Counted from the first letter of the stretch, positions 17,822-62,058 are shown. The stretch: DNA of 64,000 nt from an uncultured Gammaproteobacteria bacterium (GCA_963843295.1 CAWJJP010000005.1:230159-294158), one strand, 5' to 3'. Notes: generated by a model not told the origin, from the sequence alone. Translations and numbers: made by a program.

Positions 17822-20032
17822 CTAAGCGGCCACGGTGTCGTCCACGGGCTTGCGGGGGGCCGGCAAGGTCATCGTCAAGCGCGTGAATTTTCCCACCGAC
17901 GTGGCAACGCCGACGCGCCCGCCGATTTGCTGCATGAGATCCGCCATGAGATTCATACCGACGCCGCGACCCGCGTCCTTGGTGGCATGCTCGACCGTCG
18001 AGAACCCGGGTCGAAACAGCAGCGAGAACGTCTGCTTCGCGTCGAGGCGCGGTGCCTGCTCCGCGGTGATGAAGCCTTTTTGGAGCGCCACTTCCTTGAT
18101 GCGTTCGGGCAGCAGGCCGCGCCCATCGTCCTCGACGCTGAGTTTGTAGCCTCCCTCGCCCAACTCCTTGAATACCAGCCGCACCGCCCCGGCCGACGGC
18201 TTTCCCGCCGACTCACGTGCCGCCGGAGCTTCGATGCCATGGACGATGGCATTGCGTACGGCTTGGATGGCGATGTCCTTGACGATCCGCCGATATTCCT
18301 CCGGTACCGCGTCCAAGCCCGAGCAATGCAAGGCGGCCTGTTTGCCGCTCTCCGCGGCCACCCGTGCCGTGAGTTGCTCCAGCCCGGTCTGCAACCCCCC
18401 ATCGGCTGCGCCGAGGACCGGCGTACCCTGCTCCGCCGCGCCCCCGGCGGCGGGCGCCGGCGCAAACGCGATCTCCGTCTGCGGCACTTGAAACTTCGAC
18501 AGCCGCGACACCAATTCGCTGACCGACTGCAGGTGCGTCAGCAAGTCGTCGAGCTTGATGACGAGCGGCAAGAAGTCGTTGCCCGACAATCCGGGCCTGT
18601 CGCGCAGCAGCTTCAGGTCGTCCTCAAAGGAGTGGGCCCGGCTCTCGATCGAGGACAGCCCGAGCGCGGCCGCTTCTCCCTTGACCGAGTGCGCCTGCCG
18701 GAACAGCGTATCGAGTTTCTTGCGGAACGCGCCCTCCTCCCGCGCCGGCTCGCGCAGCACCGCGTTGATCATTTTCATGGCCGCATTCGAATCGTTCAAG
18801 AACGAGGCAAGCTGGTCCGGATCGATGTGCAGAATGCCGAGCAGCGTATCGACCTGCGCCTGCGCCTGGCTCTGAGAATTCTGCAGCTCGCGGGCGAGCT
18901 CCACCCGGGAACTCACGTCCGAGACGGACACCAGGATGTGCGTGATCCTGCCATCGACCCGTACCCGGTGGAATTCGAATTGGAGAAAGCGCGTTTCGAA
19001 TTTGCCGCCGCCGGCATCCAGATGCACCTCGACCTCACCGAGAGGATTGATCGACTTGACCAGCTTCTCGTTGGTCCGCTCCAACCAAAGAACCGTGACG
19101 AATTTCAATGCGGTATCGAGGGTCTTCTCCGACACGATGTTCTTCAGCAGGCTCTCGAAGGAGAGTCCCGCGATGTCGCGGCGTTGAAACAGGGTTTCCA
19201 GTGCGGTCGAGAAGGTCGTGCCGATGACGAGATTGCGGTCGAGCAGGAACAAACCGTCCTTGACGGTGCGGAGTATGTCCGTCGTTTGCTGGCGGGCCTC
19301 GCGCAGGCTCGCATCCTGACGCTGCCTGGCGCCGATCATCAACAGCACCAGCAGCACCAATACTGCGGCGATCAGCAGCCCCATGAACAGCACCAGCTGC
19401 AGCTCCTTCGCGGCCTGCACGTTGCTCGACTGCAGCCGGGCGCTGATTTGCAACAGCAGCGCGTCGAGTTCGGGGAGCACGTGATGGCTCGTGCGCGCCG
19501 CGGCGGCGATGTCACGCTCCAATTGGCGCCCGTTGTCATTGAGCGCGGTGCCAGTGGACTCGTTATCCTTGTAGGGCACGCCGTTGAAGTTCACCAGCGG
19601 CTCGAGCACCGCGCGTTCGCGCGCCCAAAGCTCGTGCAATTGCGCCGCGCTCCTGCCGGCGATCGACTCGGCGGTGGCGCCGGTGTCCCCGGCCAGAGCG
19701 AGCCAGCTCGCGGGACGCGGCGCGGTCATGGCGGGCAGGGCCGCATCGATCTTCCCAACCGCATCGCGAAGCTGATCGGCGGCCTCCTGCAGATAACCCC
19801 GATTGTTCAACCGGTCGCGCATGACCTCCAACGAGGACTGCAGCAACGTCGGATAGCGCTGTTGGTCGGCGACCAACTTCAGGGCCGCCGTGCTCTCCAC
19901 GAGCTCGCTTGCGAGTTCGATTCCCGGAATGAGCACCGTCGTCAGGAAGGTCATGCCGAGAACGGCGACCAGCGCGCCGAGGCCGACGGGCGAGAAGGCA
20001 GGAATGGAGGATTTCAACGAGCGCCAATTCAT
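17822..20032 (-). CDS. Membrane-anchored CheA-like histidine kinase (TM-periplasmic-TM, Hpt, CheA-type ATPase; no CheW-like P5 domain)
   Basis: Two TM segments flank a helical region of about 170 aa. Hpt 'FRQAHSVKGEAAALG'. ATPase boxes 'VRNAIVHGIE', 'VEDDGRGL', 'LLFRPGFST', 'GRGVGMNLM'. The protein ends about 40 aa after the last box, so there is no room for a P5 domain. Confidence 0.85.
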   Translation of the reverse strand: MNWRSLKSSIPAFSPVGLGALVAVLGMTFLTTVLIPGIELASELVESTAALKLVADQQRYPTLLQSSLEVMRDRLNNRGYLQEAADQLRDAVGKIDAALPAMTAPRPASWLALAGDTGATAESIAGRSAAQLHELWARERAVLEPLVNFNGVPYKDNESTGTALNDNGRQLERDIAAAARTSHHVLPELDALLLQISARLQSSNVQAAKELQLVLFMGLLIAAVLVLLVLLMIGARQRQDASLREARQQTTDILRTVKDGLFLLDRNLVIGTTFSTALETLFQRRDIAGLSFESLLKNIVSEKTLDTALKFVTVLWLERTNEKLVKSINPLGEVEVHLDAGGGKFETRFLQFEFHRVRVDGRITHILVSVSDVSSRVELARELQNSQSQAQAQVDTLLGILHIDPDQLASFLNDSNAAMKMINAVLREPAREEGAFRKKLDTLFRQAHSVKGEAAALGLSSIESRAHSFEDDLKLLRDRPGLSGNDFLPLVIKLDDLLTHLQSVSELVSRLSKFQVPQTEIAFAPAPAAGGAAEQGTPVLGAADGGLQTGLEQLTARVAAESGKQAALHCSGLDAVPEEYRRIVKDIAIQAVRNAIVHGIEAPAARESAGKPSAGAVRLVFKELGEGGYKLSVEDDGRGLLPERIKEVALQKGFITAEQAPRLDAKQTFSLLFRPGFSTVEHATKDAGRGVGMNLMADLMQQIGGRVGVATSVGKFTRLTMTLPAPRKPVDDTVAA

Positions 20033-47093: not shown

Positions 47094-48377
<1,284 letters not shown>

Positions 48378-48464
48378 GGAGGCAGGGCGAAGTTTATCGG
48401 TATGATTCACGGTCCAAGAGAAGCCGCGTGAGCGGCTGTTAGAAAACCATCGAGAGGAACCATT

Positions 48465-49037
48465 ATGGCAGTTTCAATTCATCCGTCGGTCGACAACGGC
48501 ATCAAGCAGGGGGCGAAAGACTTCGCTGGCGGGACCTTGGTGTGCAAGTGCACCGACAGGCCGGTCAAAGTCTCGGTCAAGGCCCAGTCGATGCACAACC
48601 ACGCCTGCGGCTGCACGAAGTGCTGGAAACCGAAGGGCGCCCTGTTTTCAGTCGTTGCGGTGGTGCCGAAAGACAAGGTCAGCGTAGTCCAAAATGGCGA
48701 TAAGCTCGCCGTCGTCGATCCGTCGGCGACCATTCAGCGTCATGCGTGCAAAGCCTGCGGCGTGCATATGTTCGGCCGGATCGAAAACACCAAGCATGCA
48801 TTTTACGGGCTCGATTTCATCCATACGGAACTCTCCCCGGAGCAGGGTTGGTCGGCGCCCGGATTTGCGGCGTTCGTCTCTTCCATCATCGAGTCGGGGG
48901 CGGATCCGAAGAACATGGGTGCGGTGCGCAGCCGACTCAAGGAACTCGGCCTCGAACCCTACGACTGCCTGAGCCCGCCGCTGATGGACGCTCTGGCGAC
49001 CCACGCGGCGAAGCAATCGGGCGTGCTGAAGGCCTGA
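48465..49037 (+). CDS. gfa: Glutathione-dependent formaldehyde-activating enzyme (S-(hydroxymethyl)glutathione synthase)
   Basis: 'HPSVDNGIK....[10 protein letters not shown]...VKV......[13 protein letters not shown]' and '[15 protein letters not shown]' are Gfa zinc-cysteine motifs. 190 aa. Confidence 0.92.
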
Positions 49038-49131: not shown

Positions 49132-51129
49132 TCAGTGCTCGAGAACGATGTGGTGTTTGTGTATCTTGCGATATAGCGTGTTGCGGCTGATGCCGAGCGC
49201 TTGAGCCGTGCGGCTGATGTTCCAGCGCATTCTTTCGAGCTCGCGCAGCAGCGCCGCGCATTCAGCCTCGCGCAGAGCCGCTGACGGCAGGTTGACTCCG
49301 GTCGCGGTCGCTGCCGCCGCATCCGGTGCCGCAGTGGCGGGGCGAGCCACCGGTGCCGCGCGCGGATCCGAGTCGACGACTTCCTGGGGCAGATTCGACA
49401 AGCGGATGATTCCGTCCCGACATAGCGCCGAGGCGGTGCGCAACGCATTGCGCAGCTGGCGGATGTTGCCGGGCCATGAATAGTCCAAAAGCTTGCGGAA
49501 TGCGTCGTCCGCGATCTGAACGCCCTCCTGGCCGCCGGATTCCTCCCGCAGCAAGGTCCTGATCAACTCGGCCTTGTCCTCGCGGTCCCGTAGCAGTGGC
49601 AGTTGCAGCGCGATTCCGTTCAAGCGGTAGTACAAATCCTCGCGAAATTCGCCGTTCTGGATCATCTGATGAATGTCGCGGTGCGTGGCGCTGATCACGT
49701 GCAAATTCACCGGGGTGGCCTGGTCGCTACCGAGGGGCACCACTTCCCTCTCTTCGATGACGCGCAGCAGCCGTGTCTGCAGCATCAGGGGCATATCACC
49801 GATTTCGTCGAGAAACAAAGTCCCGCCATTCGATTGCAGGATCTTGCCGACCCTGCCCTCCTTCACCGCACCGGTGAATGCGCCCCGGGTGTAGCCGAAC
49901 AACTCGCTCTCGATCAGACTCTCCGGAATCGCGGCACAATTGACCGTGACGAAAGGTTTGTCGTACCACAAACCGCCGCGATGCAGCGCCTTGGCGAACG
50001 CCTCCTTGCCGGTGCCGGTTGCTCCCAGCAGCAGAATCGGTACCTGCTTTGCAAACAGCTGCCGGCCCGCGGCCAGATTCTTTCGCATCTGCGTGTCCTC
50101 GACCACGTGATGCTGCCCGCGCTCGTGCTGGACGGCCTGCGCGGCGCTGCGCGGCTCGCTCGAGGTGAGAGCCGGGACATGTGTGAGTGAGCGTAGCGGG
50201 GCGCGCACGACGGCGAAGAAGCGCCTTCCATGAGCAAGATCTCTGACGGGCCAGATGGCGCTTGGTTCGAACTTGGAGCGATGATCGAGCGTGCCAAAAT
50301 CGAACTGAAAGAAGCGCTCGATCGACTGCCCGATCAGCGCCTTGCGGGTCGAACACCCCAGTTGCATGAGCGCGCTTTCGTTGACTGCGAGGATGCTGCC
50401 GCAGCCGTCCACGGCAATCAGAGCCTCGTGCAGCAAACCGACGAATTCGGGGCGGCTGTGAAATCGTAATATCCACGACTGGCTGAACTCGTTGAGAAAG
50501 TTCCAACGCGAGATCAGGTGCGTCGACATGTTGACGAGGGCCATGGTGTGGCGCTGAATGAGCCGGCTGTCGCTGGAGTTGGCCGTGGATGCATCGAGCA
50601 CCGCGAGGATCGCACCATGGGGGTCGAGAATCGGCGCAGCGGAGCAGGACAGGGAAACGTTGTAGCCGCGGAAGTGCTCTTGCCGGTGCACCGTCACCGA
50701 ATTGCCTTCGGCGAGGCAGGTCCCGATGCCGTTGGTCCCTTCGTGGCGTTCGTCCCACATCGCGCCGAGCGATAAACCAGCCTGGCGGAACTCGCGCTGC
50801 AGGGCCGGATCACTGATGGTGCTCAGTACCGCCCCCTGGGTGTCGGACAGGATCACCGCAAAACCCGATCCCGCAATCTGTTCGTAGAGGCTTTCCATTT
50901 CCGCACGCGCAATGGGCAGCAACTCGCCCATGCGCTGCTGGGACTCCTTGAGAGAGCCCGGATTTAGCACGGCAATCTGCCGCGGCGCCGACGGCTCGAT
51001 GCCGTATTCACGCAAGCATCGATGCCAGGACCGGGTGACGTGCGGCTCTATACCCGCAGGCTGGAACCCCCCTTGCACGACATGAAGAATGCGTGACGCG
51101 TGACTCGTCGCAAGATTATCGTTCGGCAT
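49132..51129 (-). CDS. Sigma-54-dependent transcriptional activator, AcoR-like (GAF sensor, AAA+, Fis HTH)
   Basis: Walker A 'LLLGATGTGKE', sigma-54 contact loop 'GYTRGAFTGA', Walker B 'TLFLDEIGDM', and C-terminal HTH 'WNISRTAQALGISRNTLYRKI'. ATG 51129 after GGGGGAGAGG. Confidence 0.88.
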   Translation of the reverse strand: MPNDNLATSHASRILHVVQGGFQPAGIEPHVTRSWHRCLREYGIEPSAPRQIAVLNPGSLKESQQRMGELLPIARAEMESLYEQIAGSGFAVILSDTQGAVLSTISDPALQREFRQAGLSLGAMWDERHEGTNGIGTCLAEGNSVTVHRQEHFRGYNVSLSCSAAPILDPHGAILAVLDASTANSSDSRLIQRHTMALVNMSTHLISRWNFLNEFSQSWILRFHSRPEFVGLLHEALIAVDGCGSILAVNESALMQLGCSTRKALIGQSIERFFQFDFGTLDHRSKFEPSAIWPVRDLAHGRRFFAVVRAPLRSLTHVPALTSSEPRSAAQAVQHERGQHHVVEDTQMRKNLAAGRQLFAKQVPILLLGATGTGKEAFAKALHRGGLWYDKPFVTVNCAAIPESLIESELFGYTRGAFTGAVKEGRVGKILQSNGGTLFLDEIGDMPLMLQTRLLRVIEEREVVPLGSDQATPVNLHVISATHRDIHQMIQNGEFREDLYYRLNGIALQLPLLRDREDKAELIRTLLREESGGQEGVQIADDAFRKLLDYSWPGNIRQLRNALRTASALCRDGIIRLSNLPQEVVDSDPRAAPVARPATAAPDAAAATATGVNLPSAALREAECAALLRELERMRWNISRTAQALGISRNTLYRKIHKHHIVLEH

Positions 51130-51222: not shown

Positions 51223-51766
51223 CTAGGAGCTGGGCTCCGGTGGGGGCTTCGGCGCACCGAATTTATAGGCGGGATCGCCGTTGTATTTCGATCGGACGAA
51301 GACGAGGATCTTCCAGAGATCATCGGAATTCTTGATGATCGCGCCGAACGGCGGCATTGGGCCGACGACATTCTCACGACCGATGCGCGTGTAGCCTTGT
51401 TTCTGCAAGTCCTCGCTGCCGAGGGTCACCAAGCGGAACAAGGTGTCATCGTCGCCGCCGTATACCCACGTGTCGTTGGTGAGCGGCGGACACATGCCGC
51501 CGCCGCCGCCGCCGCCGTGGCAGCCGCTGCAGGAATAACTGAGCAACAGCTTGCCCCCTTCCGCAACGATATCCGCCTGGGTGTCCTTGTAGGGATTGGC
51601 CAGCTGTCCTTTCGGCGTGCTCTTGACCAGATCCGTGGGCGAAATTTTCGTGTAATCGACGCTTCGCCGGCCTCTCCTCCCGCCCACACGCTGCCGAAAA
51701 TTCCAAGCGCCGTCAGGAACGCGACCGCAACGCCATGACAACTGCGGGTAACACTCGTCTCAGCAC
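51223..51766 (-). pseudogene. xoxG: XoxG/MxaG-like cytochrome c(L), disrupted by two frameshifts in the signal-peptide region
   Basis: A GTG at 51766 follows GGAAGGAGG. The N-terminus reads 'VLRRVLPAVVMA', then shifts frame to 'AVAFLTALGIFGSVWAGGEAGEA', then shifts again to 'VDYTKISPTDLV..SYSCSGCHGGGGGGGMCPPL..'. Haem motif is CSGCH. Shifts lie near 51728 and 51662. Confidence 0.7.
51496..51516 (-). repeat. (GCC)7 trinucleotide run encoding Gly7 next to the haem motif
   Basis: Read directly. It encodes HGGGGGGGM and stays in frame, so it is not one of the frameshift sites. Confidence 0.9.
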
Positions 51767-51786
51767 AGTTCCTCCTTCCCTCAGCC

Positions 51787-52519
51787 TTAAGTCGACTTCG
51801 TTGCGCCATTGCGCCGCGCTTGTCGAAGCAGCTCGACGATGGCATCGTTATTGTTCGACTGCGCGATGCTGAGCGCGGTGCGGCCGTCCTCGCTGCGCGC
51901 ACGGACGTCGGCTCCGGACTTCAGCAGCAGACGCGACAAGGTTCGCATGATTGTCGGCGGCGGCGATCATCAGTGCGGTGACGCCGCCCGGGTTGGCGGC
52001 GTTGACCTTCGCGCCGTGATCGATGAGCGCTGTCGCGAGCTCGCTCGAGCCCGAAATCGCGGCGAGCATCAGCGGCGTATAGCCGCCCTCGGCGACCGGT
52101 GCATTGACGTCGGCGCCGGCGTCCACCAACGCCTCCGCCGCCTTGATCTTGCCGTTTTGCGCGGCGATCGCGAGCGGCGTCAAGACCTCTTGTCCTCCGC
52201 ATCGAGTCTCGCACCATGACGAGAGCATCGTGACAACGTCGGGTTGTCGTCCCACGCGGCATACATGAGCGGCGTCCAGTGGCTGCGGTCCGGCTGATTC
52301 GCATCGGCCTTGTGCTCGATCAGATACTCGCTACGCCAACGAAGCCGAAGCGTGTGGCGTTGATCGAGCGGCGTATAGCCTTCGCCATCCGGCGTGTCGG
52401 CGTGCGCTCCATGCGTCATCAGGTAGCGCACCCGGTCGATGTCGTTGGCGACGATGGCATTGTTCAACTCATCGTCGGGATTCGCTCCCGGCGGCCAGCC
52501 ATTTCTTGAGATCGGCCAT
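51787..52519 (-). pseudogene. Ankyrin-repeat protein gene with multiple frameshifts
   Basis: Ankyrin consensus (G.TPL..A...G...vv..Ll..GAdvn) is recovered only by hopping frames: 'MADLKKWLAAG', 'ANPDDELNNAIVANDIDRVRYLMTHGAHADTPDGEGYTPL', 'INATRFGFVGVA', 'EYLIEHKADANQPD..WTPLMYAAWDDNP', 'DVVTML', 'HGARLDAEDKR', 'LTPLAIAAQNGK..ADNHANLV', 'LLLKSGADVRARSEDGRTALSIA'. Confidence 0.6.
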
Positions 52520-52543
52520 TCGCGCCTGCGTGCATTTTGGCGA

Positions 52544-53433
52544 TTACCGCGGCGGTGTCCACGCGGGCTGGCCGGCTCGTAAGGACCGTGAGAAGGCAGG
52601 TCGCCGGAAATCGCGCACTCGTCGCACTTGACCAGAGGGACGCCGAAGTCGAGCAGAATCTGCCTTATTTCGGCCTTGTGCTCCGCGACAGCCTGCTTCG
52701 ATCGCCGCTTTGATGTCGGGCCGTGCCTCGCGGCACGGCGAGGGCCATGTCGAATTCCATCGGCACGTCATCTTCCATCAGGTTGACTGGCTGGATGATC
52801 AGCGGCGCATGCGCAGCTCTTGTAGTATCCGGCCATCGGACCCCAGGCCGCGGCGACGTCGAGGCTTCCGTCGATGACTTGCTGCACCTGGTAGGAGGGT
52901 TGGTTTTCCGGCACGAGGTCGCCATTATGGCTGAGATAGTGAATCACGGTATTGTAGACCATACGGTGCTCCGACAGAGCCTCACGAATGGCGGACACCT
53001 GGAACACACCCACGCGCAGTTTCTTCAACGCCGGATCGTCCAGGGTCTTGATGTCGATGCCCTTGTCGTTGCGATAGGCCAGGACGAAGGTGGAGCGGTA
53101 CAGCGGAGTCAGGACCACGGCGCCTTCGGTGTCCGCCGCCATATCCATCCATAGATCGCAATTGCCCTCGCTCAAGGTGGTGCGCATGAGCCCGCGCTCG
53201 ATCGAGGGCCGCCAGTAATACTGCACGCCCGTACCAAGCGCGGTGCCGATGACTTGCGCAATCTTGTTCTCGAAGCCCTCGCCTTTCTGGTTCGACAGCG
53301 GCATGTTGCCAGGATCGGCACACACGGTCAGGGACTTCAACTCGGCGCCGAACGCGCTCCCGCTCGAGCCGGCGGCCAGCAGAAACGCGGCTGCGCCTGT
53401 GCTGCACATGAAGCTTACCGACTTGAGATTCAT
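52544..53433 (-). pseudogene. xoxJ: XoxJ/MxaJ-like periplasmic solute-binding protein (quinoprotein-dehydrogenase associated), frameshifted in its last third
   Basis: ATG 53433 after GAGGAGAA. 201 aa are intact ('LTVCADPGNMPLSNQKGEGFENKIAQ..YYWRP..CDLWMD..PLYRSTFVLAYR'). The sequence then continues only by frame changes near 52820, 52730 and 52697 ('APLIIQPVNLMEDDVPMEFDMALAV', 'RPDIKAAIEA', 'AVAEHKAEIRQILLDFGVPLVKCDEC'). The 3' end is uncertain. Confidence 0.65.
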
Positions 53434-53615
53434 TGCTGTTCTCCTCGAGGCGTGCACACCGCGGACTTCATTACGGCGGCGGGTCAGTAATTCGACCACG
53501 GGTTTTCCAAGGTTCAGTTCACGGCCCGCCTTCACCGCAGGACGGCATCCACAAGAAAAAGCCCGGTGCCTCGCGGCACCGGGCCATTCCTTCCTGCAAA
53601 TTCCCGTTACTTGCG

Positions 53616-55505
53616 TCAGTCGCCGACCCGGAAGGTGTACAGCGTACCGCCCTGCGGGATGTGGTTGAGACCGGCAGCTTTGGTCATCGCCGTTGCGCCG
53701 ATGGCACCATACTTGTCGCTGAGATCGAGGCCCGCCGTCACCGGCAGACCGATCCAACCGCCGATTCCGGACCATACCGACACGTACTGCTTGCCTTTCA
53801 CCGAATACGTGATCGGGTTGCCGATGATGCCCGAGCCCAGCTTGCGCGACCACAGCACCTTGCCGGTCGAACGGTCGACCGCTCGGAAATCGCCGCCCAA
53901 GCTGCCGTAGAACGCCAGACCGCCGCCGGTCACAAGCGCACCGCCCCAGTTCGGATACTGATCGGGAATCTCCCACTCGGTCTTGCCGGTCAGACACATT
54001 GAACTTCTTGAACTTGCCGGTCACGCCCGGCTTTTCCGGATACATGTACACGTTGGCAAACACGTACACCGTTCCCTGCTGGGTATGCGAGCGCGACTGC
54101 GGCTCGTCTTCCATGCACCAGTTGTTGGTCGGTACATAGAAGTTGGTCGGATCGCTCGGATCCACCGCCACCGGCTGCTGGTCCTTGCCGCCCATGGCGG
54201 ACGGGCAAGCCTGCGTGTTGTCGCCCACCTTGAGCGGCGAATGCTCGGGCACCTTGACCGGCTTGCCGGTCTTCATATCGACCTTCTCGGCCCAGTTCAC
54301 CGTGACGTACTTGTTCGCACGCAGCAGCGTGCCATCCGTTCGGTCGAGTACATAGGCAAAGCCGTTGCGGTCAAAATGCACCAGGCACTTGCGCGTCTTG
54401 CCGTCGACGTCCATGTCGACCAGCACCACCTCGTTGATGCCGTCATAGTCCCACTGGTCGAACGGCGTCATCTGGTAGGCCCATGACGCCTCGCCGGTGT
54501 TCGACGTTGCGGGCAAAAATGGTCATCGACCATTTGTTGTCGGACTTGCCGCTGTTGCAATTCTCCTGAGTGACCGGCGGGCTGCAGCGATATGAGGGCG
54601 ACCACAGGCCCGGATTGCCGGTGCCGTAGTACACCATGTGCAGCTCAGGATCGTAGGCATACCAACCCCACGCCGCGCCGCCGCCGCGCTTCCATTCATC
54701 CCCCGGATAGCTGCTGATGCCGACATCTTTGCCGGCGGTGCCGTACTCCGGATGCTTCTTGTTGGTGTCCTTGCGTCAGGCACACGTCCTTGTCGCTGCC
54801 GGTGGAGTAGCAGTCCCAGGCCATTCTTGCCGTCGGCGAGGTCGTAGGCCGCACATCGCTCCGCGTGCGGCGAACTCATCGCCACCAAAACCGATGATCA
54901 CCTTGTCGTTGGCGATAATCGGTGCCGGGGTGATCGTCTCGCCGTGCTCGGGATAGGCGTGACTTCACCGTCCAGTCTACTTTGCCCGTCGCCGCATCGA
55001 GTGCAATCACGTAACCATCCAGCGTGCCGAACACCAGCTTCCCATCGGCATACGACAGTCCGCGATTGACGGTGTCGCAGCAGGCGCGAGGAACCGCCGA
55101 TTCATCACGACCGCCGGTTTTGACGTAGCTCCAAACCTGCACCGGATGATCCGGATCGCTCAAATCCATCGCCTGCACGATGTTCGGCCAGCCGCTTTCC
55201 ATGAACATCATCGGCTTGCCGCCGACGTCCTCGATGACCAACGGCTGCCCCTCGTGGCCACGCATTGTGCCGCTCGACTGAGACCACACCATCTGCAGAC
55301 TCTTTACGTTGCCGGTGTTGATCTCTTTAAGGGCGCTATAGCGATTGAGGTTCAGATTGCCTGCCGGAGCGCCCCACTGATTTGGGTCTTTGAAGCGCTG
55401 AAATTGTTCGGAATCAGTTGCAGCCAATACGGTGCCGCAGGTCATGCCCAGCGCTGCTACAACGTAGAACATTTTGACCTGACGTTTTGCGGTAAGCCAT
55501 TTCAT
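53616..55505 (-). pseudogene. xoxF: XoxF-type (lanthanide-type) PQQ methanol/ethanol dehydrogenase split into seven frame segments
   Basis: ATG 55505 after AGGAGGAG, with a signal peptide. Hallmarks: 'ACCDTVNRGLSY' (vicinal Cys), 'MVYYGTGNPGLWSP', 'DQWDYDGINE' (D-Y-D), 'GGWIGLP'. Pieces lie in track ORFs 54876..55739, 54523..54888, 54443..54637, 52768..54516 and 53616..53999, plus two unlisted frames. Confidence 0.85.
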
Positions 55506-55734
55506 CTCGATTCTCCTCCTGCTTGGGGTCTGCCTATCACCGTCACTGATGTGAAGCGGCGTGCACACAGTTCTGGCCTGAGTGCCGTGCTGAAATTGTG
55601 ACCATGGATCGTGTTCACTGAGAAAACTCCCTCCTCTAGCTTTTAGTTCTCTGGTCAAACCCATCGGCACCAGTCTGATCCCAATGAGCTGGTATGTCAG
55701 CGTTGTGCAACTGACAGGACCGCGATGATTGAAT

Positions 55735-55750
55735 AGCAATGGCTATGCCA
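55735..55750 (-). promoter_or_regulatory. Sigma-54 (-24/-12) promoter upstream of xoxF
   Basis: The minus strand reads TGGCATAGCCATTGCT, with GG-N10-GC spacing exact and a TTGC -12 box. It lies about 230 nt upstream of the xoxF ATG. Confidence 0.6.
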
Positions 55751-55951
55751 TCGCGCACTACTTCGAAGAAAATACTGCTTGGTCCGGAAATTGTTTTAAA
55801 TCATGTATTTATACTGCCCACGCAGTGCGGGCCAGGAGCCGGCATGGGGGACTGTGCCAAAGTTGTGACAGTGGAGCAGTCGCGATTGCGCCGTTCGTGA
55901 GGCGACGCACCAAATTTGAAGGCGCTGCGCGAGCGACGCGCCATGCCGGCG

Positions 55952-56932
55952 CTACGGGATGCTGACGCCCCAGGGCAGTTCGCCGACCGCGATCGTCTTG
56001 GTGACCTGCAGCGTCATCGTATCGATCACGCTCACGTTGTTGGAGCGGCCGTTGGCAACGTACAGCTTTCGCCCGTCGCGCGTGAGCGCCAAGTTCCAAG
56101 GTCGCTTTCCCACCACAATGGTCGCGACGACCTTACGGCTGGCGACATCGATCACGGAAACGTTGCCGTCCCCGCCGTTGCTCACGAACACCTGTTTGCC
56201 GTCGGGCGCCGTGACTGCGCCGGCCGGACGCAGCCCGGTGACGATCGACTGAACCACCTTTCGGGCGGTCACATCAATGACGTCGACACCCCCCGCGGTC
56301 TCTTGGGCCACGAAGGCAATCTGCTCGTGCGGCAGCCACGCAATCCCGCGCGGGTGGCCGGATGTGTGCACCGTGCCGATCGAACGCGCCGCTTTCAGGT
56401 CGATGATGTCGACGTCGTCGGAAAGCTCGTTGCTCGTCATCAGGGAGCGTCCGTCCGGACTGAAGGCGCAGTGTTCGGGATTCTTGCCCTGAGTTGGAAT
56501 TTTTTTGACGATGCGAAATTGATCGACGTCGACCAGAGTCACGACATTGTCGTTTTCGACGCAAACGGCGATCGTCTTCCCGGACGGCGACAGTGAGGCG
56601 CCCTCGGGAGCCTGGCCGACATCGAGACTTCGCATGATCCGGCCCGTCGCCACGTCGACGGCAACGAGCGCGTTCGCGTCCGCATCGACGGCGAACGCGG
56701 TTTTCTCGGCCTGGTCCGTGATCACCGCTTGAACTTTTCCGCCGATCTTGCCGTGGTCCGGCAGCGTGCGCGTCAGTTCATCGCGCTCCGTGTCGATGAC
56801 CGACACGGTGCCGCTCGCCTGGTTGCCGACGTACGCGGATGCCTGAGCGGAACCGGGTGCCGACATCGCACCGATGGCGGCAAGCCATGCGCAAGCCACC
56901 GACTGCAATGCGTTCGCGAACTTTCCGTTCAT
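55952..56932 (-). CDS. YVTN-family beta-propeller repeat protein (type found beside PQQ-dehydrogenase genes)
   Basis: ATG 56932 and a signal peptide 'ALQSVACAWLAAIGAMSAPGSAQA'. Repeated 'V.VID....v...i.vG..P.g.a.spDG' blades. Only the 3' third of track ORF 55952..58420 is real. Confidence 0.8.
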   Translation of the reverse strand: MNGKFANALQSVACAWLAAIGAMSAPGSAQASAYVGNQASGTVSVIDTERDELTRTLPDHGKIGGKVQAVITDQAEKTAFAVDADANALVAVDVATGRIMRSLDVGQAPEGASLSPSGKTIAVCVENDNVVTLVDVDQFRIVKKIPTQGKNPEHCAFSPDGRSLMTSNELSDDVDIIDLKAARSIGTVHTSGHPRGIAWLPHEQIAFVAQETAGGVDVIDVTARKVVQSIVTGLRPAGAVTAPDGKQVFVSNGGDGNVSVIDVASRKVVATIVVGKRPWNLALTRDGRKLYVANGRSNNVSVIDTMTLQVTKTIAVGELPWGVSIP

Positions 56933-56945
56933 GCAATGTGCCTTA

Positions 56946-56981
56946 TCGTTGAGGACTGTCGCGTCGTTGAAGACTGTCGCG
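56946..56981 (-). repeat. Two tandem 18-nt direct repeats immediately upstream of the YVTN gene start
   Basis: tcgttgaGgactgtcgcg (56946-56963) and tcgttgaAgactgtcgcg (56964-56981), 17 of 18 identical. They begin 14 nt upstream of the ATG at 56932. Confidence 0.85.
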
Positions 56982-57021
56982 TCGGTGCGCACCGTATGCT
57001 GCAACGTCGGCGGCCGGCGAG

Positions 57022-58248
57022 TCAATACGAGCCCGCTCGAGCGCGTGCTTGCGCGCTGCTCATGGCGATGCCGTGCCGTTCGGGGCCGAGACCGACCATC
57101 ACGGAAATCACCACGGCGACCGCGCCGACGACGATCGCCATCGCCAGGCCGTAGTCGTTGCCGTGCGCCTCTGCGATCGCGACCTGCAGATTTAAATTGA
57201 CCGCGGCAAGCAGATTCCCCAGTTGGTAGACGAAGCCGGGAAATGTTGCACGAATCTCCGGCGGCGAGAGCTCGTTCAGATGCGCGGGAATCACGCCCCA
57301 GGCGCCCTGCACGGAGAGCTGCATCAAAAATGCGCCGCTGGCGAGTATCAGCGGGGTCGAGCCGAACGCCCAGAACGGCAGCGCCGGCAGTGCCAAGAGG
57401 GCTGCGATGATGATGGCGCGGCGACGGCCGACCTTCTCGGACATGGATCCGAAGAGCAGTCCACCGCAGATCGCCCCGATATTCGCCACCGCCGTCACGA
57501 GCGACCCCAGGCGGGTATCGAAGTGATGCTGCACTTTGAGAAACAAGCCGGGATATGCGTCTTGCGAGCCGTGACTGAAGAAGTTGAATGCCGTCATCAG
57601 TAGAACGGCATACGACGCCAGCTTCCACTCGCGCTTCAGCACGGCAAAGATACCCGCACGCGGAGCGCGTCGTTGCTCCTGCCATGCGGGGGACTCTTCG
57701 ACTCTGCCGCGAATGAAGAAGACCAGCACGGCCGGGATGACGCCGAGCACGAACATATAGCGCCATCCGACCCGGTCGTAGAGCAGGTAGACCGCGAGGG
57801 AGGCGAGGAAATAACCCGACGGGTAGCCGACCTGCAGCAGGCCCGACACGAAGCCGCGCGCCGAAGCGGGAATCGTCTCCATCGTCAGCGCGGAACCGAC
57901 GCCCCACTCTCCGCCCATCGCGATTCCAAACAGGGCACGCACGATCAGCAGTATCGACATGTTCGGCGCAAAACCCGAGGCCATCTCCAGTACCGAATAA
58001 GCCAGGATGTTCCACATCAGCGTCGGCTTGCGGCCGAAGCGGTCCGCGAGCCGGCCGAAGAGAAAGGCGCCGACCGGCCGCATACCGAGCGTGAGCAGTA
58101 CGGCCGTCGAGACGAGTTGCATGCTCGCATGCAGCTCCCTCGAGATATCCTTGAACATGAACACCATCAGGAAAAAATCGAATGCATCGAGGGTCCAGCC
58201 CAGGTAAGCGGCCACCACCACGTTGCGCTGGCTTTTTGTCCACGCCAT
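57022..58248 (-). CDS. MFS transporter (sialate/lactate:H+ symporter-like subfamily)
   Basis: 12 TM. 'AAYLGWTLDAFDFFLMVF', 'GRLADRFGRKPTLM', 'ALFGIAMGGEWG'. ATG at 58248 (the track ORF starts one codon earlier at TTG), with GAGGAG 6 nt upstream. Confidence 0.88.
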   Translation of the reverse strand: MAWTKSQRNVVVAAYLGWTLDAFDFFLMVFMFKDISRELHASMQLVSTAVLLTLGMRPVGAFLFGRLADRFGRKPTLMWNILAYSVLEMASGFAPNMSILLIVRALFGIAMGGEWGVGSALTMETIPASARGFVSGLLQVGYPSGYFLASLAVYLLYDRVGWRYMFVLGVIPAVLVFFIRGRVEESPAWQEQRRAPRAGIFAVLKREWKLASYAVLLMTAFNFFSHGSQDAYPGLFLKVQHHFDTRLGSLVTAVANIGAICGGLLFGSMSEKVGRRRAIIIAALLALPALPFWAFGSTPLILASGAFLMQLSVQGAWGVIPAHLNELSPPEIRATFPGFVYQLGNLLAAVNLNLQVAIAEAHGNDYGLAMAIVVGAVAVVISVMVGLGPERHGIAMSSAQARARAGSY

Positions 58249-58281
58249 CAAGGTCTCCTCGGGAGGAGCATACTATGTCGG

Positions 58282-58965
58282 GTGACAGCCGTAGTTCCCA
58301 AACCTGTGACGATCGCCGTCGATGGGACGATCGAGGTCTCCGGCTTGATGCAGCGTCCGGCGCGCGCCGATGCATGCTTGGTGCTCGCGCATGGCGCCGG
58401 AGCCGGCATGCGTCATCCATTCATGAGCGCGGTCGCCGATGATCTTGCAGCGCTCGGGATTGCGACGCTGCGCTATCAATTTCCTTATATGGAAAATGCG
58501 AGCCGGAGGCCCGACCCCCCGGCGCTCTGCCATGCCACTGTGCGCGCCGCCGTCGCTGCGGCCCGACGGTCGGAACCCACGCTTCCTCTCATAGCGGGCG
58601 GCAAATCCTTCGGCGGCCGAATGACGTCGCAGGCACAAGCCGCCGCTCCGCTTCAAGGAGTCTGCGGATTGGCTTTTCTGGGATTTCCGCTGCATCCCCC
58701 AAAGCAGCCGTCGGATGCCCGGGGTGAGCACTTGATGAAAGTGCATATCCCAATGCTTTTCCTGCAGGGCTCGCGGGACGCTTTCGCCGAGTTGCCGCTG
58801 CTCGAAGCACTCGCCGGGCGGTTGGGGACGCGCGCGCGTCTGGTCCTGCTTGCCGATGCGGACCACTCTTTTCATGTACCTGCGCGCAGCGGGAGAACCG
58901 ATCCCGAGGTGCGGGACGAAATGCTGCAGGTTCTCGCCGCGTGGACGGGATCGATCATCCGGTGA
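58282..58965 (+). CDS. Alpha/beta-fold hydrolase (COG3571-like predicted hydrolase)
   Basis: 'LVLAHGAGAGMRHPFM', 'LRYQFPYME', 'GGKSFGGRM', 'LQGSRDAF', 'ADHSF'. The start is ambiguous. GTG 58282 is in frame, but the well-spaced ATG at 58275 (6 nt after GAGGAG) is out of frame by 1. Confidence 0.68.
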   Translation: MTAVVPKPVTIAVDGTIEVSGLMQRPARADACLVLAHGAGAGMRHPFMSAVADDLAALGIATLRYQFPYMENASRRPDPPALCHATVRAAVAAARRSEPTLPLIAGGKSFGGRMTSQAQAAAPLQGVCGLAFLGFPLHPPKQPSDARGEHLMKVHIPMLFLQGSRDAFAELPLLEALAGRLGTRARLVLLADADHSFHVPARSGRTDPEVRDEMLQVLAAWTGSIIR

Positions 58966-58979
58966 GCGGGGAGCGACCG

Positions 58980-59465
58980 TTACGCAAAGCCCGTCCAGCG
59001 GCCGAGCGCGACGATCGTCGCCCACAATAGCAGCGAAAGACCGCCTGAGATCTTCGCCGGGAGCGAGGTCTGCGCGGAGGCGCCCCACTCGTCAACCGTC
59101 CGATAGGTGATCAAGTGGAAGACCAGCATGTTGATGCCCGCCACGCCCAATAACAGGATCTTGGCGCGGAACGTGGCGATACCGTAGTACTTCGTGGCTG
59201 CCGACGAAAACAGCAGCCCCCCGCAGACGGCCGCCACGACGAACGCCGTCCAGGTCCAGGGCAGTACTTCGCGGCTGATTTCCCTCACCGAATGGCCGCG
59301 ATAGGCGAGATTGAGCAATCTCAGATCGACCATGGCAATTGATCCCACGACCAATGTCAGCGCCAGCACATGCAGCGTTTCGATGCTGGGGAACAGCCAG
59401 CCAGACTCGCTGATTGTGATCGAGAAGGGCTGCGCCTCGAGCCATTGGCAGAAGCTCTGGATCAT
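58980..59465 (-). CDS. Hypothetical 4-TM inner-membrane protein, paralogue 2
   Basis: 161 aa. Shares 'P..ET.H.LA......AM.DLRL....LPW.W....AK..G..SLLLW..IV..GRW' with the upstream gene. The two genes are 3 nt apart. Confidence 0.6.
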   Translation of the reverse strand: MIQSFCQWLEAQPFSITISESGWLFPSIETLHVLALTLVVGSIAMVDLRLLNLAYRGHSVREISREVLPWTWTAFVVAAVCGGLLFSSAATKYYGIATFRAKILLLGVAGINMLVFHLITYRTVDEWGASAQTSLPAKISGGLSLLLWATIVALGRWTGFA

Positions 59466-59468
59466 GGG

Positions 59469-59954
59469 TCACGCCGCATACGCGATCCAACGTCCGGCGA
59501 CCACGATGCCTATCCAAAGCAGAAGCGATACCAGACCGGTGACCTTGGCGGCCGCTTCGTGCCTCGAACCCGTTTCCCAGTCGGTGAGGTCGCGTTTCAG
59601 CACGCGATTGAGGCCCCAGCTAATTGCAAGCACGGCGATCAACAGCGCCATCTTGGTCTGGAACACCCAATTGCCGAGCGCCCGGTCCGGTTCGCCGGTG
59701 ATCAGAATGAGGCCCGTGATCAGCAGCACGATCACGGAGCGCCACATCCAGGGCAGAAATCGGCCGGCTATCGCGCGGATGGTGTAACGCTTGGCGGTGA
59801 GGCCCATGAGCCGCAAATCGAGCATGGCCATGGTCGAGATGACCACTGAAATCGCGAGGATGTGGATCGTTTGCACGGCCGGAATGACCCATGCGACGTT
59901 CGCGACCGTTTTGCTCGCCGCAGTACCCAGGATCCAATGAATCAGCGCCTGCAT
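59469..59954 (-). CDS. Hypothetical 4-TM inner-membrane protein, paralogue 1
   Basis: 161 aa with the same conserved pattern as 58980..59465. Starts 10 nt after the TonB-dependent receptor stop. Confidence 0.6.
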   Translation of the reverse strand: MQALIHWILGTAASKTVANVAWVIPAVQTIHILAISVVISTMAMLDLRLMGLTAKRYTIRAIAGRFLPWMWRSVIVLLITGLILITGEPDRALGNWVFQTKMALLIAVLAISWGLNRVLKRDLTDWETGSRHEAAAKVTGLVSLLLWIGIVVAGRWIAYAA

Positions 59955-59964
59955 CTCACCGCCC

Positions 59965-62058
59965 TCAAAATCTCTTCGTTAGCGTCAAGCGCAGCGAAAA
60001 CGGTTCGAGCGGATGGATGTGCACATCCGCGACGCCGCCCGCCGCCTCCCCCGGGAGCCGATCGACATACCAGAATTCCATCGCATTGGCCTTGGTATTG
60101 AGCAGATTATAAGCCCCGATTGCGGCAGCCCAACCGCCGCCCAGCGCATAGCGAACGTCACCGTTCCATTCGTGGTAACCGGATCCTCGAACGGCATCAT
60201 CCGACGACAAGGGATACCCGCTCAAATAGCGCAGTTGCAGAGCGCCGCTCCACGGGCCGAGATTCATCATATAGGCCGTCAGCGAGCCCGTTGCAAACGG
60301 CGCGTTCGGCAGGAAATAACCGATATGTCCGGTGCCGTCCGCATACGGCGTGTCGAACCGGGCTCGATCCTGCGAAAAGCTGCCGTAGATCTCCAGCCAC
60401 CTCGAGGCTTGATACGTCGCATTGACCTCGTAACCGTAGCGGTGGCTCGCCGGTCCGGCCGTATCCATCCCCACATCCGGATTGTAGGTAATCTCCGACT
60501 GTGCATCGAGATTGAACACCGCGAAGGTCAGCGCGACCCGGCCGCCGTACATCTCCTGCCGCACGCCGATTTCCTCCCCGGTCTGAGCGGCGATCAGCGG
60601 TGCGCCGGGGATGCCCTTGATGTTCGCCGCGTTCACGCCGCGCAGGTCGTCGCTGTGAAAGCCGCGTCCCGCGCTCGCATACAATTCCATGGTCGCCGAC
60701 GGCGTGAAGATGAGGCTGCCTTTGGGCTCGAACAATGCCCTGCTGGCGGTGCCGTAGTTCGTGCCTTCATCGACGCCGCGTTGATAGTCCTCGCGTAACC
60801 CGAGCACCGTGCGGAACCGCGCGCTCCAATGAGTCGTCACCTGCGCGTACAGCGAATTGCTCCCGAGACGCACCCGATCGTATTCGCCCATGGCGGACTG
60901 CGCGGGTATCGACGCCCGGTTTTGCGTCAGCGAACGCGAGACGACCAGGAAATCATAGCGCTCATCCGAACCGACGAACCACTCGTTGCTGCGCCCGAAC
61001 CATTGCGCGCGGTGGCTGTAGCAGATCGATCCGCCCGCCGTGCTGCGGTTCTCGTGCTGCTCTTCTTGATCACCGAGGACGGGATTGACGAGGTAATGCG
61101 TGAAATCATTCCACAAGGTCAAGTAATTGCTGAATGCATAGGCGCCGACGGTCAACTGGCCGCCGCCCGCCTGCGCGTAGTACCGGCCGGTCAAGTTCGC
61201 GCGCTGCGCGATCCCGCCGTCGGATGGGTTGAGCGATCCGAAGCGGCCGATCAAGTCCCCGGCGATGGCCCTTTGCGGTTGATCGGTCGTGGCATTCCAA
61301 AGATCGTGGTAATAGGAGGCCGTCAGCGAGTAGCCATCGTGCGCGTCGCCCACCTGATCGCGCAGCAGCACATTGATCTTGCGTTGATCGTCCGGGTTGA
61401 CCCAGGGACCGTCGTAGTGCTGCAGCTCCAGCGCGCCGAGCACGTTGCTGTGGTTGACCGTTGCCGATCCCGCGGCGAACAGGCGTTGATAATTGAAATT
61501 GCCGGCCGTCGCCGATATCTCATCGGGGATGCGGTCCAGATATTCGATATGCACCGAGCCGACCGACGCAAAATCGCCTTCATTGGCGTAGTAAGTTCCC
61601 TTGGTATAGAAGATGTCGGTCGCCAGTTCGGGAATGAGGAAATTCAGATCCGTGTAACCCTGGCCATGCGCGTGCGTCGGCTCGTTGACCGGCATTCCGT
61701 CGACGAACGTCGCCAGGTCCGTGCCATGGTCCAGGTTATAGCCGCGCATGAGATATTGATTTGCTTTGCCCTCGCCGCTGTGTGAGGCGACGTCGAGCCC
61801 CGGAACCGTCTCGAGCAGCTGGCCGGGGCGATACGCCGGCGCGAGCGCCAATTCTTCGTTTACGACCACCCCTTCGCTCGCGCTCGTCGCGATGCCGATC
61901 AGCCGCAGTCTCTCGGCGGTCACGGTGATCTCCTGCAATTGGTCGGTCGGTGCATCGCCGCCGGCGTCCGGCTGTGCCGCGGCCGGCACCAGATCCGGGG
62001 CCGAGAGCAACGCGAGCGTACTAATGAGAGAGCTACCGACGGAGACGAATCGCCGCAT
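59965..62058 (-). CDS. TonB-dependent outer-membrane receptor
   Basis: Signal peptide, plug ('EITVTAERL', 'PGQLLETVPGLDVASHSGEGKANQYLMRGYNLDHGTDLATFVDGMPVNE'), beta-barrel and a terminal '...LTLTKRF'. Confidence 0.9.
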   Translation of the reverse strand: MRRFVSVGSSLISTLALLSAPDLVPAAAQPDAGGDAPTDQLQEITVTAERLRLIGIATSASEGVVVNEELALAPAYRPGQLLETVPGLDVASHSGEGKANQYLMRGYNLDHGTDLATFVDGMPVNEPTHAHGQGYTDLNFLIPELATDIFYTKGTYYANEGDFASVGSVHIEYLDRIPDEISATAGNFNYQRLFAAGSATVNHSNVLGALELQHYDGPWVNPDDQRKINVLLRDQVGDAHDGYSLTASYYHDLWNATTDQPQRAIAGDLIGRFGSLNPSDGGIAQRANLTGRYYAQAGGGQLTVGAYAFSNYLTLWNDFTHYLVNPVLGDQEEQHENRSTAGGSICYSHRAQWFGRSNEWFVGSDERYDFLVVSRSLTQNRASIPAQSAMGEYDRVRLGSNSLYAQVTTHWSARFRTVLGLREDYQRGVDEGTNYGTASRALFEPKGSLIFTPSATMELYASAGRGFHSDDLRGVNAANIKGIPGAPLIAAQTGEEIGVRQEMYGGRVALTFAVFNLDAQSEITYNPDVGMDTAGPASHRYGYEVNATYQASRWLEIYGSFSQDRARFDTPYADGTGHIGYFLPNAPFATGSLTAYMMNLGPWSGALQLRYLSGYPLSSDDAVRGSGYHEWNGDVRYALGGGWAAAIGAYNLLNTKANAMEFWYVDRLPGEAAGGVADVHIHPLEPFSLRLTLTKRF

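Follow-up and report, generated by a model that had tools for sequence, protein, structure and literature searches.

A xoxF-xoxJ-xoxG operon broken over many frames is probably a hybrid assembly consensus and not a decaying locus

Has an organism whose methanol oxidation operon carries some 20 frameshifts lost a metabolic capacity, or has the operon been damaged during assembly? The question is raised by a 64,000-nucleotide stretch of DNA from an uncultured Gammaproteobacteria bacterium (GCA_963843295.1 CAWJJP010000005.1:230159-294158; hereafter the window), in which the minus-strand xox operon is broken over many frames. A preliminary description of the window offered recent targeted decay of lanthanide-dependent methanol oxidation and a locally error-rich assembly patch among the possible explanations. 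Our sequence comparisons point with good confidence to the second, in the form of a hybrid (collapsed-haplotype) consensus from long-read metagenome assembly, and indicate that the frameshifts are very likely neither gene decay nor a real biological feature.

The sigma-54-dependent activator next to the operon served as the anchor for finding a sister assembly, L032 (ENA ERZ25039525 contig_220825), which we compared with the window over 38.5-61.2 kb (Table 1). The locus resembles known xoxF-xoxJ-xoxG lanthanide methanol dehydrogenase operons in combining a PQQ methanol/ethanol-family dehydrogenase that carries WDYDG, a MoxJ-like binding protein and a c-type cytochrome, and in the window it adjoins the sigma-54 activator and glutathione-dependent formaldehyde genes. 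The XoxF ortholog of L032 matches TIGR03075 at 576.6 bits (cutoff, 480), homologs in JGI are named lanthanide-dependent methanol dehydrogenase, and the frame-corrected XoxF of the window contains the motif as 'FDQWDYDGINE', the Asp after the catalytic Asp (WDYDG) being the XoxF signature. The locus differs from the known operons in two respects. In the window's family, the XoxJ-like protein carries fused ankyrin repeats; in the L032 ortholog, residues 35-268 match TIGR03871 (240 bits; cutoff, 212) and Ank repeats are present in addition. The xoxG-like cytochrome matches the MoxG model weakly (38.7 bits; cutoff, 147.8). The xoxJ and ankyrin segments, described at first as separate genes, form one fused ORF in all relatives. 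A promoter scan gave one good site upstream of xoxF, a sigma-54-like site at 55736-55750, but the pattern shows no enrichment across the window, and the site therefore says little.

Table 1. Coordinates of the xox locus, its flanks and the control region in the window
Feature	Position	Strand	Remarks
Divergent indel-rich patch (probable hybrid consensus)	51295..55371	-	~424 substitutions and ~55 BLAST gap openings vs L032
xoxF, PQQ/lanthanide-type methanol dehydrogenase	53616..55505	-	Six window-unique +1 insertions
Fused xoxJ-like periplasmic binding protein + ankyrin repeats	51787..53433	-	12 window-unique indel events; L032 ORF, 549 aa
xoxG-like c-type cytochrome gene	51223..51766	-	Two 2-nt insertions; 3' two-thirds nearly identical to L032
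xoxF/xoxJ intergenic spacer	53434..53615	-	~1% substitution divergence from L032, yet several 1-nt indels
Sigma-54-dependent activator	49132..51129	-	Intact; protein identical to that of L032
Upstream flank: promoter region, beta-propeller gene, MFS gene start	55506..57500		Essentially identical to L032
Second divergent patch: window is the intact parent, L032 the hybrid	57500..61000		Positive control

The frame disruptions were confirmed by alignment with intact orthologs. Against 25 xoxF orthologs, the window has unique 1-nt insertions at 54962, 54854, 54823, 54773, 54501 and 53994. Against 18 orthologs of the xoxJ-ankyrin gene, its unique indel events, with a net change of -3, fall at 52818 (-2), 52724 (+1), 52698 (+1), 52565 (-2), 52527 (+1), 52492 (+1), 52366 (+1), 52328 (-1), 52235 (-1), 52221 (-2), 52190 (-1) and 51933 (+1). 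The xoxG gene carries +2 events at 51729-51728 and 51669-51668, both near its 5' end. All 20 of the positions noted in the preliminary description were recovered within ~10 nt, so that the genes do not in fact run in a single frame; the common direction of the six xoxF shifts also held, all six being +1 insertions, while some of the other events proved to be 2 nt. No stop codon occurs in the 588 + 466 + 167 projected codons of the three genes or inside the frame-corrected translations, in agreement with the reported absence of nonsense codons. The indels do not sit in homopolymers, run lengths at their sites being only 1-2, and a homopolymer-error origin was rejected on that ground. Informal inspection by eye of the insertion sites in the window and in a related genome with frameshifts in xoxF (L008), with a methylation or sequence-motif effect in mind, found no shared motif.

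The genes around the operon had been described as intact. This was borne out for the flanking sigma-54 activator, beta-propeller, MFS, abhydrolase, DUF6644 and TonB receptor (803 aa) genes, all of which are single-frame relative to their orthologs, but not throughout the window. Gene integrity at 2.4-22.8 kb was checked against the contig of a further related assembly, L001. Compared with its ortholog, a CheA-like gene at ~18.45 kb lacks 14 + 3 nt within a GC-rich repeat, and this deletion shifts the frame.

In L032, the orthologous locus is uninterrupted, with xoxF (627 aa), xoxJ-ankyrin and xoxG (179 aa) all intact. Comparison of the two assemblies established that the window's operon lies within a discrete divergent patch. 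Each 500 nt of the flanks (39.1-51.5 kb and 55.5-57.5 kb) contains 0-1 mismatch to L032, the exception being an 18-nt insertion at 56967-56988, and the activator and GFA proteins are identical, whereas the operon at 51.5-55.5 kb differs by 21-86 mismatches per 500 nt. Across the patch (51.3-55.4 kb), this amounts to ~10% substitutions (~400) in addition to the gap openings, with identical sequence beyond both edges. The first picture of the operon was right about the indels, which are real features of the sequence, but missed the roughly 400 substitutions that accompany them.

We considered that so many frame-disrupting indels in one operon with intact neighbors could reflect genuine pseudogenization of lanthanide-dependent methanol oxidation, either in situ or through import of a decayed copy. 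We regard this as very unlikely. With the operon ~10% diverged between flanks that are the same as in L032, there was no time for decay in situ. Mismatches between the window and L032 show a period of 3, and in xoxF 169 of 239 fall at codon position 3. The dS of xoxF is 0.54 and its dN/dS is 0.085, inside the range of intact orthologs (0.04-0.09); dN/dS is 0.11 for xoxG and 0.275 for xoxJ-ankyrin, the latter somewhat raised, as decay would predict. At the protein level, 47 of the 56 differences between the window's XoxF and that of L032 are residues common among 120 real XoxFs, and the remaining 9 all adjoin indel sites. The marks of relaxed selection that we looked for in the operon, namely, dN/dS near 1, nonsense codons and family-foreign residues, were not seen, family-absent residues occurring only next to indels. 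The scarcity or absence of neutral substitutions beside some 20 indels would also imply an indel-to-substitution ratio far above that of usual bacterial mutation. Flank identity, third-position bias and family-typical residues thus contradict recent targeted decay, as do the indels themselves, which sit at differences between two lineages and, unlike mutations, merge two alleles.

The allele content of the patch is mosaic. The window carries 10 of the 33 derived alleles private to L032 in the patch, interleaved with majority alleles, compared with at most 2 (xoxF) and 4 (xoxJ-ankyrin) in real outgroup lineages, and L032-private and foreign alleles switch over <100 bp. The ratio of the divergence from L032 to outgroup divergence, taken as the foreign fraction, is ~1.1-1.25 in 5' xoxF, 0.3-0.8 in 3' xoxF, 0.03-0.19 in the spacer, 0.3-0.5 in xoxJ-ankyrin and near 0 in 3' xoxG, and relative divergence rises with lineage conservation (rho -0.45, p 0.046). 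A count of switches in parental state (H, as defined below, versus the related lineages L035-L037) was dropped as nondiscriminating, because unrelated control lineages also split ~50:50 at those sites.

We propose that the operon at 51.3-55.4 kb is very probably a consensus in which assembly combined the reads of at least two related populations of soil bacteria. Population H would be the flank strain, represented by L032, and population D would comprise one or more unsampled Steroidobacteraceae lineages at a greater distance, with the same xoxF/xoxJ-ankyrin/xoxG order. The patch may be restricted to the operon because D reads would be recruited only at sequence conserved enough for alignment; other lineages do not align in the spacer, which explains its few substitutions relative to L032. 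In read alignments, adjacent H/D substitutions would appear as a paired insertion and deletion, and a consensus step that retains the bases of both alleles, or loses both, would leave 1- to 2-nt indels present in neither organism.

The indels are shown here to lie at the sites, and to contain the bases, expected from such a step. All xoxF insertions and most xoxJ-ankyrin indels lie at multinucleotide H/D differences and combine bases of both alleles, as in AAGAA|TGGCCTGG at 54823 and ACG|C|AAGGAC at 54773. Mismatches within ±5 nt of indels number 2.94, compared with 1.26 in the background, and none of 20,000 resamples reached 2.94, although local misalignment may inflate this figure. The same process was observed with both parents known in a second patch at 57.5-61 kb, where the roles are reversed and the parents are the window-type sequence and L001. 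There, L032 agrees with L001 at 101 of 103 SNPs. It also carries eight 1-nt indels that neither the window nor L001 has, each of them at an H/D SNP where both alleles were either kept or dropped; the abhydrolase gene of L032 is split over two frames. The SNP-to-indel ratio is ~13:1 in this control and roughly 17-20:1 in the xox patch. The two-lineage mosaic and the both-allele indels support the option of a locally error-rich assembly patch.

A real recombinant xox allele, covering the operon or short tracts of it and derived from another Steroidobacteraceae lineage, with frameshifts added as consensus errors from co-occurring nonrecombinant siblings, would account for a sharp patch between identical flanks and for divergence that looks natural and selected. 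It would also fit 5' xoxF, where the foreign fraction exceeds 1 and the nearest relatives of the window are at ~85%. The best match there is ~86-87% at the nucleotide level and the best locus changes every 90 nt (90-nt sliding match, 117 loci), so that the window behaves in this segment like an independent lineage; H and D would be only ~80-85% identical, which is rather divergent for graph collapse. Still, we regard a recombinant allele as unlikely. Over most of the patch the foreign fraction stays far below 1, L032-private alleles are interleaved at a scale of <100 bp, a mixed read set would still be needed for the indels, so that the frameshifts stay artifacts, and the control patch in L032 yields both SNPs and indels by mixing alone. 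For the xox patch, neither GTDB representatives, a 5.8-billion-protein database nor JGI contigs yielded the second parent, which counts against a hybrid consensus. The closest protein matches were at 88-89% amino acid identity in the protein database, whose representatives are clustered at 90%, which limits the search, and at 89% among 185 JGI metagenome loci; comparison at the DNA level with the top partial matches, P0009 and P0002, gave no closer donor.

Two further readings have only a very slim chance of being correct. The second haplotype could be a second xox operon of the same genome, collapsed with the first, and the patch would then still be an assembly artifact. Many methylotrophs have several xoxF copies, and the foreign component shares the whole operon order, but no second xoxF lies within the 64-kb window, and in the control patch of L032 the second parental sequence clearly comes from a different, L001-like population. 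At a similarly remote level of probability, mosaic and frameshifts could both be real: in a strain that otherwise matches L032, a working xox operon would have been overwritten in patches, by gene conversion, with a divergent copy that already carried frameshifts, or locus-restricted, indel-only mutation would have taken place. Lanthanide-dependent methanol oxidation would then have been lost in one step, with similar events recurring in L008, L031 and L013.

The origin of related assemblies is in keeping with a hybrid consensus. L032 and the closest relatives of the window are Flye-named contigs from Nanopore MFD assemblies, which are Nanopore-only and made with metaFlye and one Medaka round (PMC12313526), and we infer that the window comes from a metagenome assembly of this Nanopore metaFlye-plus-Medaka type. 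Lineage-unique +1 insertions of the same type occur in xoxF of three Nanopore MFD bins (L008, L031 and L013), all of them GTDB species representatives from the window's family. Frameshifted xoxF was found at 3 of 15 Nanopore loci and 0 of 10 short-read/JGI loci, a nonsignificant trend (Fisher p 0.25-0.52).

Collectively, our findings suggest that the real organism's xox operon is probably intact and should be treated as such in any account of its biology. They are also a warning, given that xoxF, a conserved and ecologically important marker, looks multiply frameshifted in the window and in at least those three Nanopore MAGs. If such xoxF pseudogenes in long-read soil MAGs are artifacts, analyses of decay, pseudogene counts and metabolic potential could wrongly score a loss of methanol oxidation. 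Regions of this kind could be flagged without reads by a divergent patch between flanks that match a sister assembly, together with third-position substitutions, low dN/dS and nonhomopolymer 1-nt indels at multinucleotide lineage differences.

Three known systems invite comparison. Like bacterial pseudogenes and decaying operons, the locus has several frameshifts in functionally linked genes with intact neighbors; unlike them, it has neither relaxed selection nor nonsense codons, its flanks leave no time for decay, and its indels are two-allele merges. Nanopore assemblies are known for 1-nt homopolymer indels that give apparent frameshifts and truncated proteins (PMC9262707), and the window shares the 1-nt indels and apparent frameshifts, but its indels are nonhomopolymer, clustered in a 4-kb patch and coincident with substitutions. 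The third is the strain- or species-collapsed consensus of long-read metagenome assemblies, formed when metaFlye unitigs collapse and Medaka then polishes on mixed pileups; metaFlye merges related strains or species, and collapsed and resolved unitigs alternate (Strainy, 10.1101/2023.01.31.526521; Strainberry, PMC8302730). That literature deals mostly with 95-99% identity, whereas the foreign component of the window is at ~80-90% and confined to one conserved operon, and dense nonhomopolymer 1-nt indels at multinucleotide variants are not described in these two papers or in PMC12313526. The window nevertheless shares with collapsed consensus a mixed-allele patch amid strain-resolved sequence on one contig, divergence from every real haplotype and small indels that break ORFs.

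On the minus strand at 51223-55505, the xox operon (xoxF, xoxJ-ankyrin and xoxG) reads as many short ORFs in differing frames. The preliminary description had claimed about 20 indels here, and MAFFT alignments of xoxF with 25 orthologs, xoxJ-ankyrin with 18 and xoxG with 7 reproduced 20 of 20 positions, offset by at most about 10 nt. All six xoxF shifts, said to run in the same direction, are +1 insertions in the 25-ortholog alignment, and the window indels do not lie in homopolymers. The reported lack of nonsense codons was borne out (0 stops in about 1200 projected codons), as was the integrity of the flanks, where the activator, beta-propeller, MFS, abhydrolase, DUF6644 and TonB receptor genes are single-frame relative to orthologs. 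Further away, 13 genes at 2.4-22.8 kb are likewise single-frame, with the exception of a CheA-like gene. Its deletion falls in the linker, where the hexamer (GCGCCG)n forms a GC-rich repeat, after which the C-terminal ~175 residues continue in another frame and are only 67% identical; either true slippage in the repeat or an error of assembly may account for it.

Coordinates of the indels, allele junctions and genes discussed (window positions unless stated)
Feature	Position	Strand	Details
xoxF, six 1-nt insertions	54962, 54854, 54823, 54773, 54501, 53994	-	window-unique among 25 orthologs
xoxJ-ankyrin, 12 events (net -3)	52818 (-2), 52724 (+1), 52698 (+1), 52565 (-2), 52527 (+1), 52492 (+1), 52366 (+1), 52328 (-1), 52235 (-1), 52221 (-2), 52190 (-1), 51933 (+1)	-	window-unique among 18 orthologs
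xoxG, two 2-nt insertions	51729-51728, 51669-51668	-	window-unique among 7 orthologs
xoxF junction	54823		H (L032) AAGAA-AGTGTGG; D (L035) AAGGT-GGCCTGG; window AAGAATGGCCTGG
xoxF junction	54773		H (L032) ACG-CCGAAC; D (L035) ACG-AAGGAC; window ACGCAAGGAC
xoxF junction	53994		H (L032) GTA-GTCACC; D (L035) GTG-CTGACC; window GTGTCTGACC
Second-patch junction	59500		window GGT-CGCC; L001 GGT-GGCC; L032 GGTGCGCC
xoxJ-ankyrin fusion	51787-53433	-	L032 7699-9348; L035 8055-9707; L037 8017-9732
xoxG-called cytochrome	51223-51766	-	L032 9368-9907
Sigma-54-like -24/-12 site	55736-55750	-	TGGCATAGCCATTGC; 1 mismatch to TGGCAC-N5-TTGC
One-carbon context	47100-49037, 55952-58251		
18-nt insertion	56967-56988		between direct-repeat copies TGTCGCGTCG
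CheA-like ORF	17822-20032	-	3 + 14 nt missing at 18440-18464 vs L034 (L001-lineage ortholog)
PrkA-family kinase	12408-14357	+	649 aa

The three xox ORFs are uninterrupted in the closest species-level relative, the soil Steroidobacteraceae MAG MFD05705.bin.2.153 (L001; 12 kb collinear at 87% nucleotide identity). Searching for exact matches to the activator (665 aa from ATG) and to the adjoining glutathione-dependent formaldehyde activation (GFA) protein led to a sister assembly, ENA ERZ25039525 contig_220825 (L032/L033, 249.5 kb), in which both proteins are identical to those of the window and xoxF (627 aa), xoxJ-ankyrin (549 aa) and xoxG (179 aa) are all intact. Nucleotide comparison of the window with L032 gave 0-1 mismatch per 500 nt at 39.1-51.5 kb and 55.5-57.5 kb, and ~400 substitutions (~10%) and ~55 gap openings at 51.3-55.4 kb. 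Because the divergence is confined to this interval between near-identical flanks, the frameshifts belong to a sharply bounded divergent patch, and since the flanks are identical to L032, the patch cannot come from decay in place. The sole window/L032 difference within an otherwise identical 2-kb stretch is the 18 nt extra in the window, in the MFS/beta-propeller spacer. Elsewhere, the PrkA-family kinase protein is 100% identical to the L001-lineage copy, and the DNA around its gene is only 88-93% identical to that lineage.

Substitutions in the patch relative to L032 have an obvious period of 3, and 169 of the 239 in xoxF fall at codon position 3. When the window was projected onto L032 codons, and thus independently of its own frame, dN/dS was 0.085 for xoxF (dS 0.54), 0.11 for xoxG (dS 0.14) and 0.275 for xoxJ-ankyrin (dS 0.24), with intact orthologs versus L032 giving 0.04-0.09, 0.06-0.18 and 0.09-0.24, respectively. 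XoxF differs from that of L032 at 56 amino acids, 47 of them residues common in 120 real XoxFs; the remaining 9 are absent from the family and all lie beside indel sites, and are therefore artefacts of frame correction in our analysis. Given the low dN/dS, zero stops and family-typical XoxF residues, the patch with its indels removed would encode healthy proteins. From bacterial mutation spectra, six frameshifts in a gene that has ceased to function should be accompanied by far more neutral substitutions than are present, and by some nonsense codons; the patch does not show this pattern. Recent targeted decay of the operon, offered earlier as one option, is contradicted by the L032-identical flanks together with the low xoxF dN/dS and zero stops.

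At every xoxF insertion, neighbouring substitutions separate the strain supplying the flanks (H, L032 type) from a second, more distant Steroidobacteraceae lineage (D, L035/L037 type), and the window holds bases of both. Alleles are merged in the same way at most xoxJ-ankyrin indels; at 52328, GCGAG (H) runs into TATCTGATCGAGCACAA, which matches L035 exactly, and the junction is one base short. Around the 18 indel events (±5 nt), mismatches to L032 averaged 2.94, a figure that local misalignment could inflate, against a background of 1.26; 0 of 20,000 resamples reached 2.94. Such two-allele merges would not be expected from mutation or homologous recombination. The xoxF of the window is more divergent from L032 (12.7% nt) than that of L001 (6.1%), and in xoxJ-ankyrin the window is closer to L032 than L001 is. 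The foreign fraction (divergence from L032 over the mean divergence of outgroup lineages) is ~1.1-1.25 in 5' xoxF, 0.3-0.8 in 3' xoxF, 0.03-0.19 in the xoxF/xoxJ spacer, where other lineages do not align, and 0.3-0.5 in xoxJ-ankyrin, and fades to 0 in 3' xoxG; it tends upward with lineage conservation (rho -0.45, p 0.046). The window has 10 of 33 L032-private derived alleles in the patch, alternating with majority alleles at <100 bp, compared with a maximum of 2 (xoxF) and 4 (xoxJ-ankyrin) in real outgroup lineages. Its 5' xoxF looks like an independent, unsampled lineage rather than a 50:50 mix, and H/D identity there would be only ~80-85%. A second parent of the patch was not found among database representatives (best 88-89% aa), 185 JGI loci (closest 89% aa) or in nucleotide comparison of 5' xoxF (closest about 86-87%). 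We consider it unlikely that the patch is an allele truly acquired by recombination and then overlaid with consensus errors, and the frameshifts would be artefacts in that case too.

A second patch, at 57.5-61 kb (L032 1-3700), serves as a positive control in which the roles are reversed and the window carries the intact version. Of the 103 SNPs that separate the two assemblies, 101 have the L001 allele in L032, and all eight 1-nt indels (8/8) are unique to L032, the window agreeing with L001 at each. Every one of these indels coincides with an H/D SNP at which L032 has retained both alleles or neither, and the L032 abhydrolase gene is therefore split over two frames. As these L001 alleles and the indels found in neither parent indicate, L032 here combines sequence of the H strain with that of an L001-like population. 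The rate of spurious indels in the second patch, ~1 per 13 SNPs, resembles that in the xox patch (1 per roughly 17-20). The window and L032, assemblies of what is essentially the same strain, each have their own divergent, frameshifted patch at different loci.

The patch bounds, mosaic alleles, merged-allele indels and L032 control indicate that the second hypothesis of the preliminary description, a locally error-rich assembly patch, was right. The frameshift storm is best explained by a hybrid consensus, one assembled sequence merged from reads of at least two related populations, rather than by loss of lanthanide-dependent methanol oxidation through decay. The mixing may have occurred by graph collapse or when reads were recruited for polishing, or may have involved more than two populations. 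The organism most likely has an intact xoxF/xoxJ-ankyrin/xoxG operon like that of L032, and the biological interest of the storm is low.

The operon lies in a one-carbon context, with GFA and zinc alcohol dehydrogenase genes downstream of the activator and, upstream, a PQQ-catabolism-associated YVTN beta-propeller (TIGR03866, below cutoff) and an MFS transporter. Described earlier as two genes, xoxJ and the ankyrin gene form a single fused ORF (549-571 aa) in L001, L032, L035, L036 and L037, and the gene aligns at full length in 18 loci. The product joins an XoxJ/MoxJ-like periplasmic binding protein (TIGR03871 above cutoff on residues 35-268) to a C-terminal ankyrin-repeat block (~320-540), and we know of no described XoxJ-ankyrin fusion. 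Against the MoxG cytochrome c(L) model, whose cutoff is 147.8, the cytochrome reaches only 38.7 bits; it matches generic cytochrome c/cbb3-type domains, and is named XoxG because of its operon position. The sigma-54-like site precedes the xoxF start codon by ~230 nt, within sequence identical to L032; since matches to its pattern are no commoner in the window than expected (56 versus 74), the site alone is weak evidence.

Lineage-unique 1-nt xoxF insertions (+1) recur in the same alignment in the MAGs L008 (six, with 15 stops in frame 1), L031 (three) and L013 (two), in places where neighbouring substitutions separate the lineages. One insertion, at alignment column 108, is common to L008 and L031. 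All three MAGs are Nanopore MFD bins and GTDB species representatives; L031 and L013 both come from sample MFD04540, and L008, L001 and L021 all from MFD05705, and the samples of the three each yielded another Steroidobacteraceae bin in the set. No such insertions were found in seven short-read and three JGI loci, and the association with platform did not reach significance for this number of loci (Fisher p 0.25-0.52). The findings have some practical value, in that the artefact can be recognised by its signature and is present in public reference MAGs as well. The MFD genomes rest on Nanopore reads alone, with metaFlye assembly followed by one Medaka polishing round (PMC12313526), and the L001 contig and L032 have Flye-style names and neighbouring ENA assembly accessions. 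Long-read assemblers of the metaFlye type merge related strains, even species, into a consensus (10.1101/2023.01.31.526521; PMC8302730), collapsed and resolved unitigs interleave along the assembly graph (Strainy, 10.1101/2023.01.31.526521; Strainberry, PMC8302730), and broken ORFs in long-read assemblies are due in large part to indels (PMC8302730; PMC9262707).
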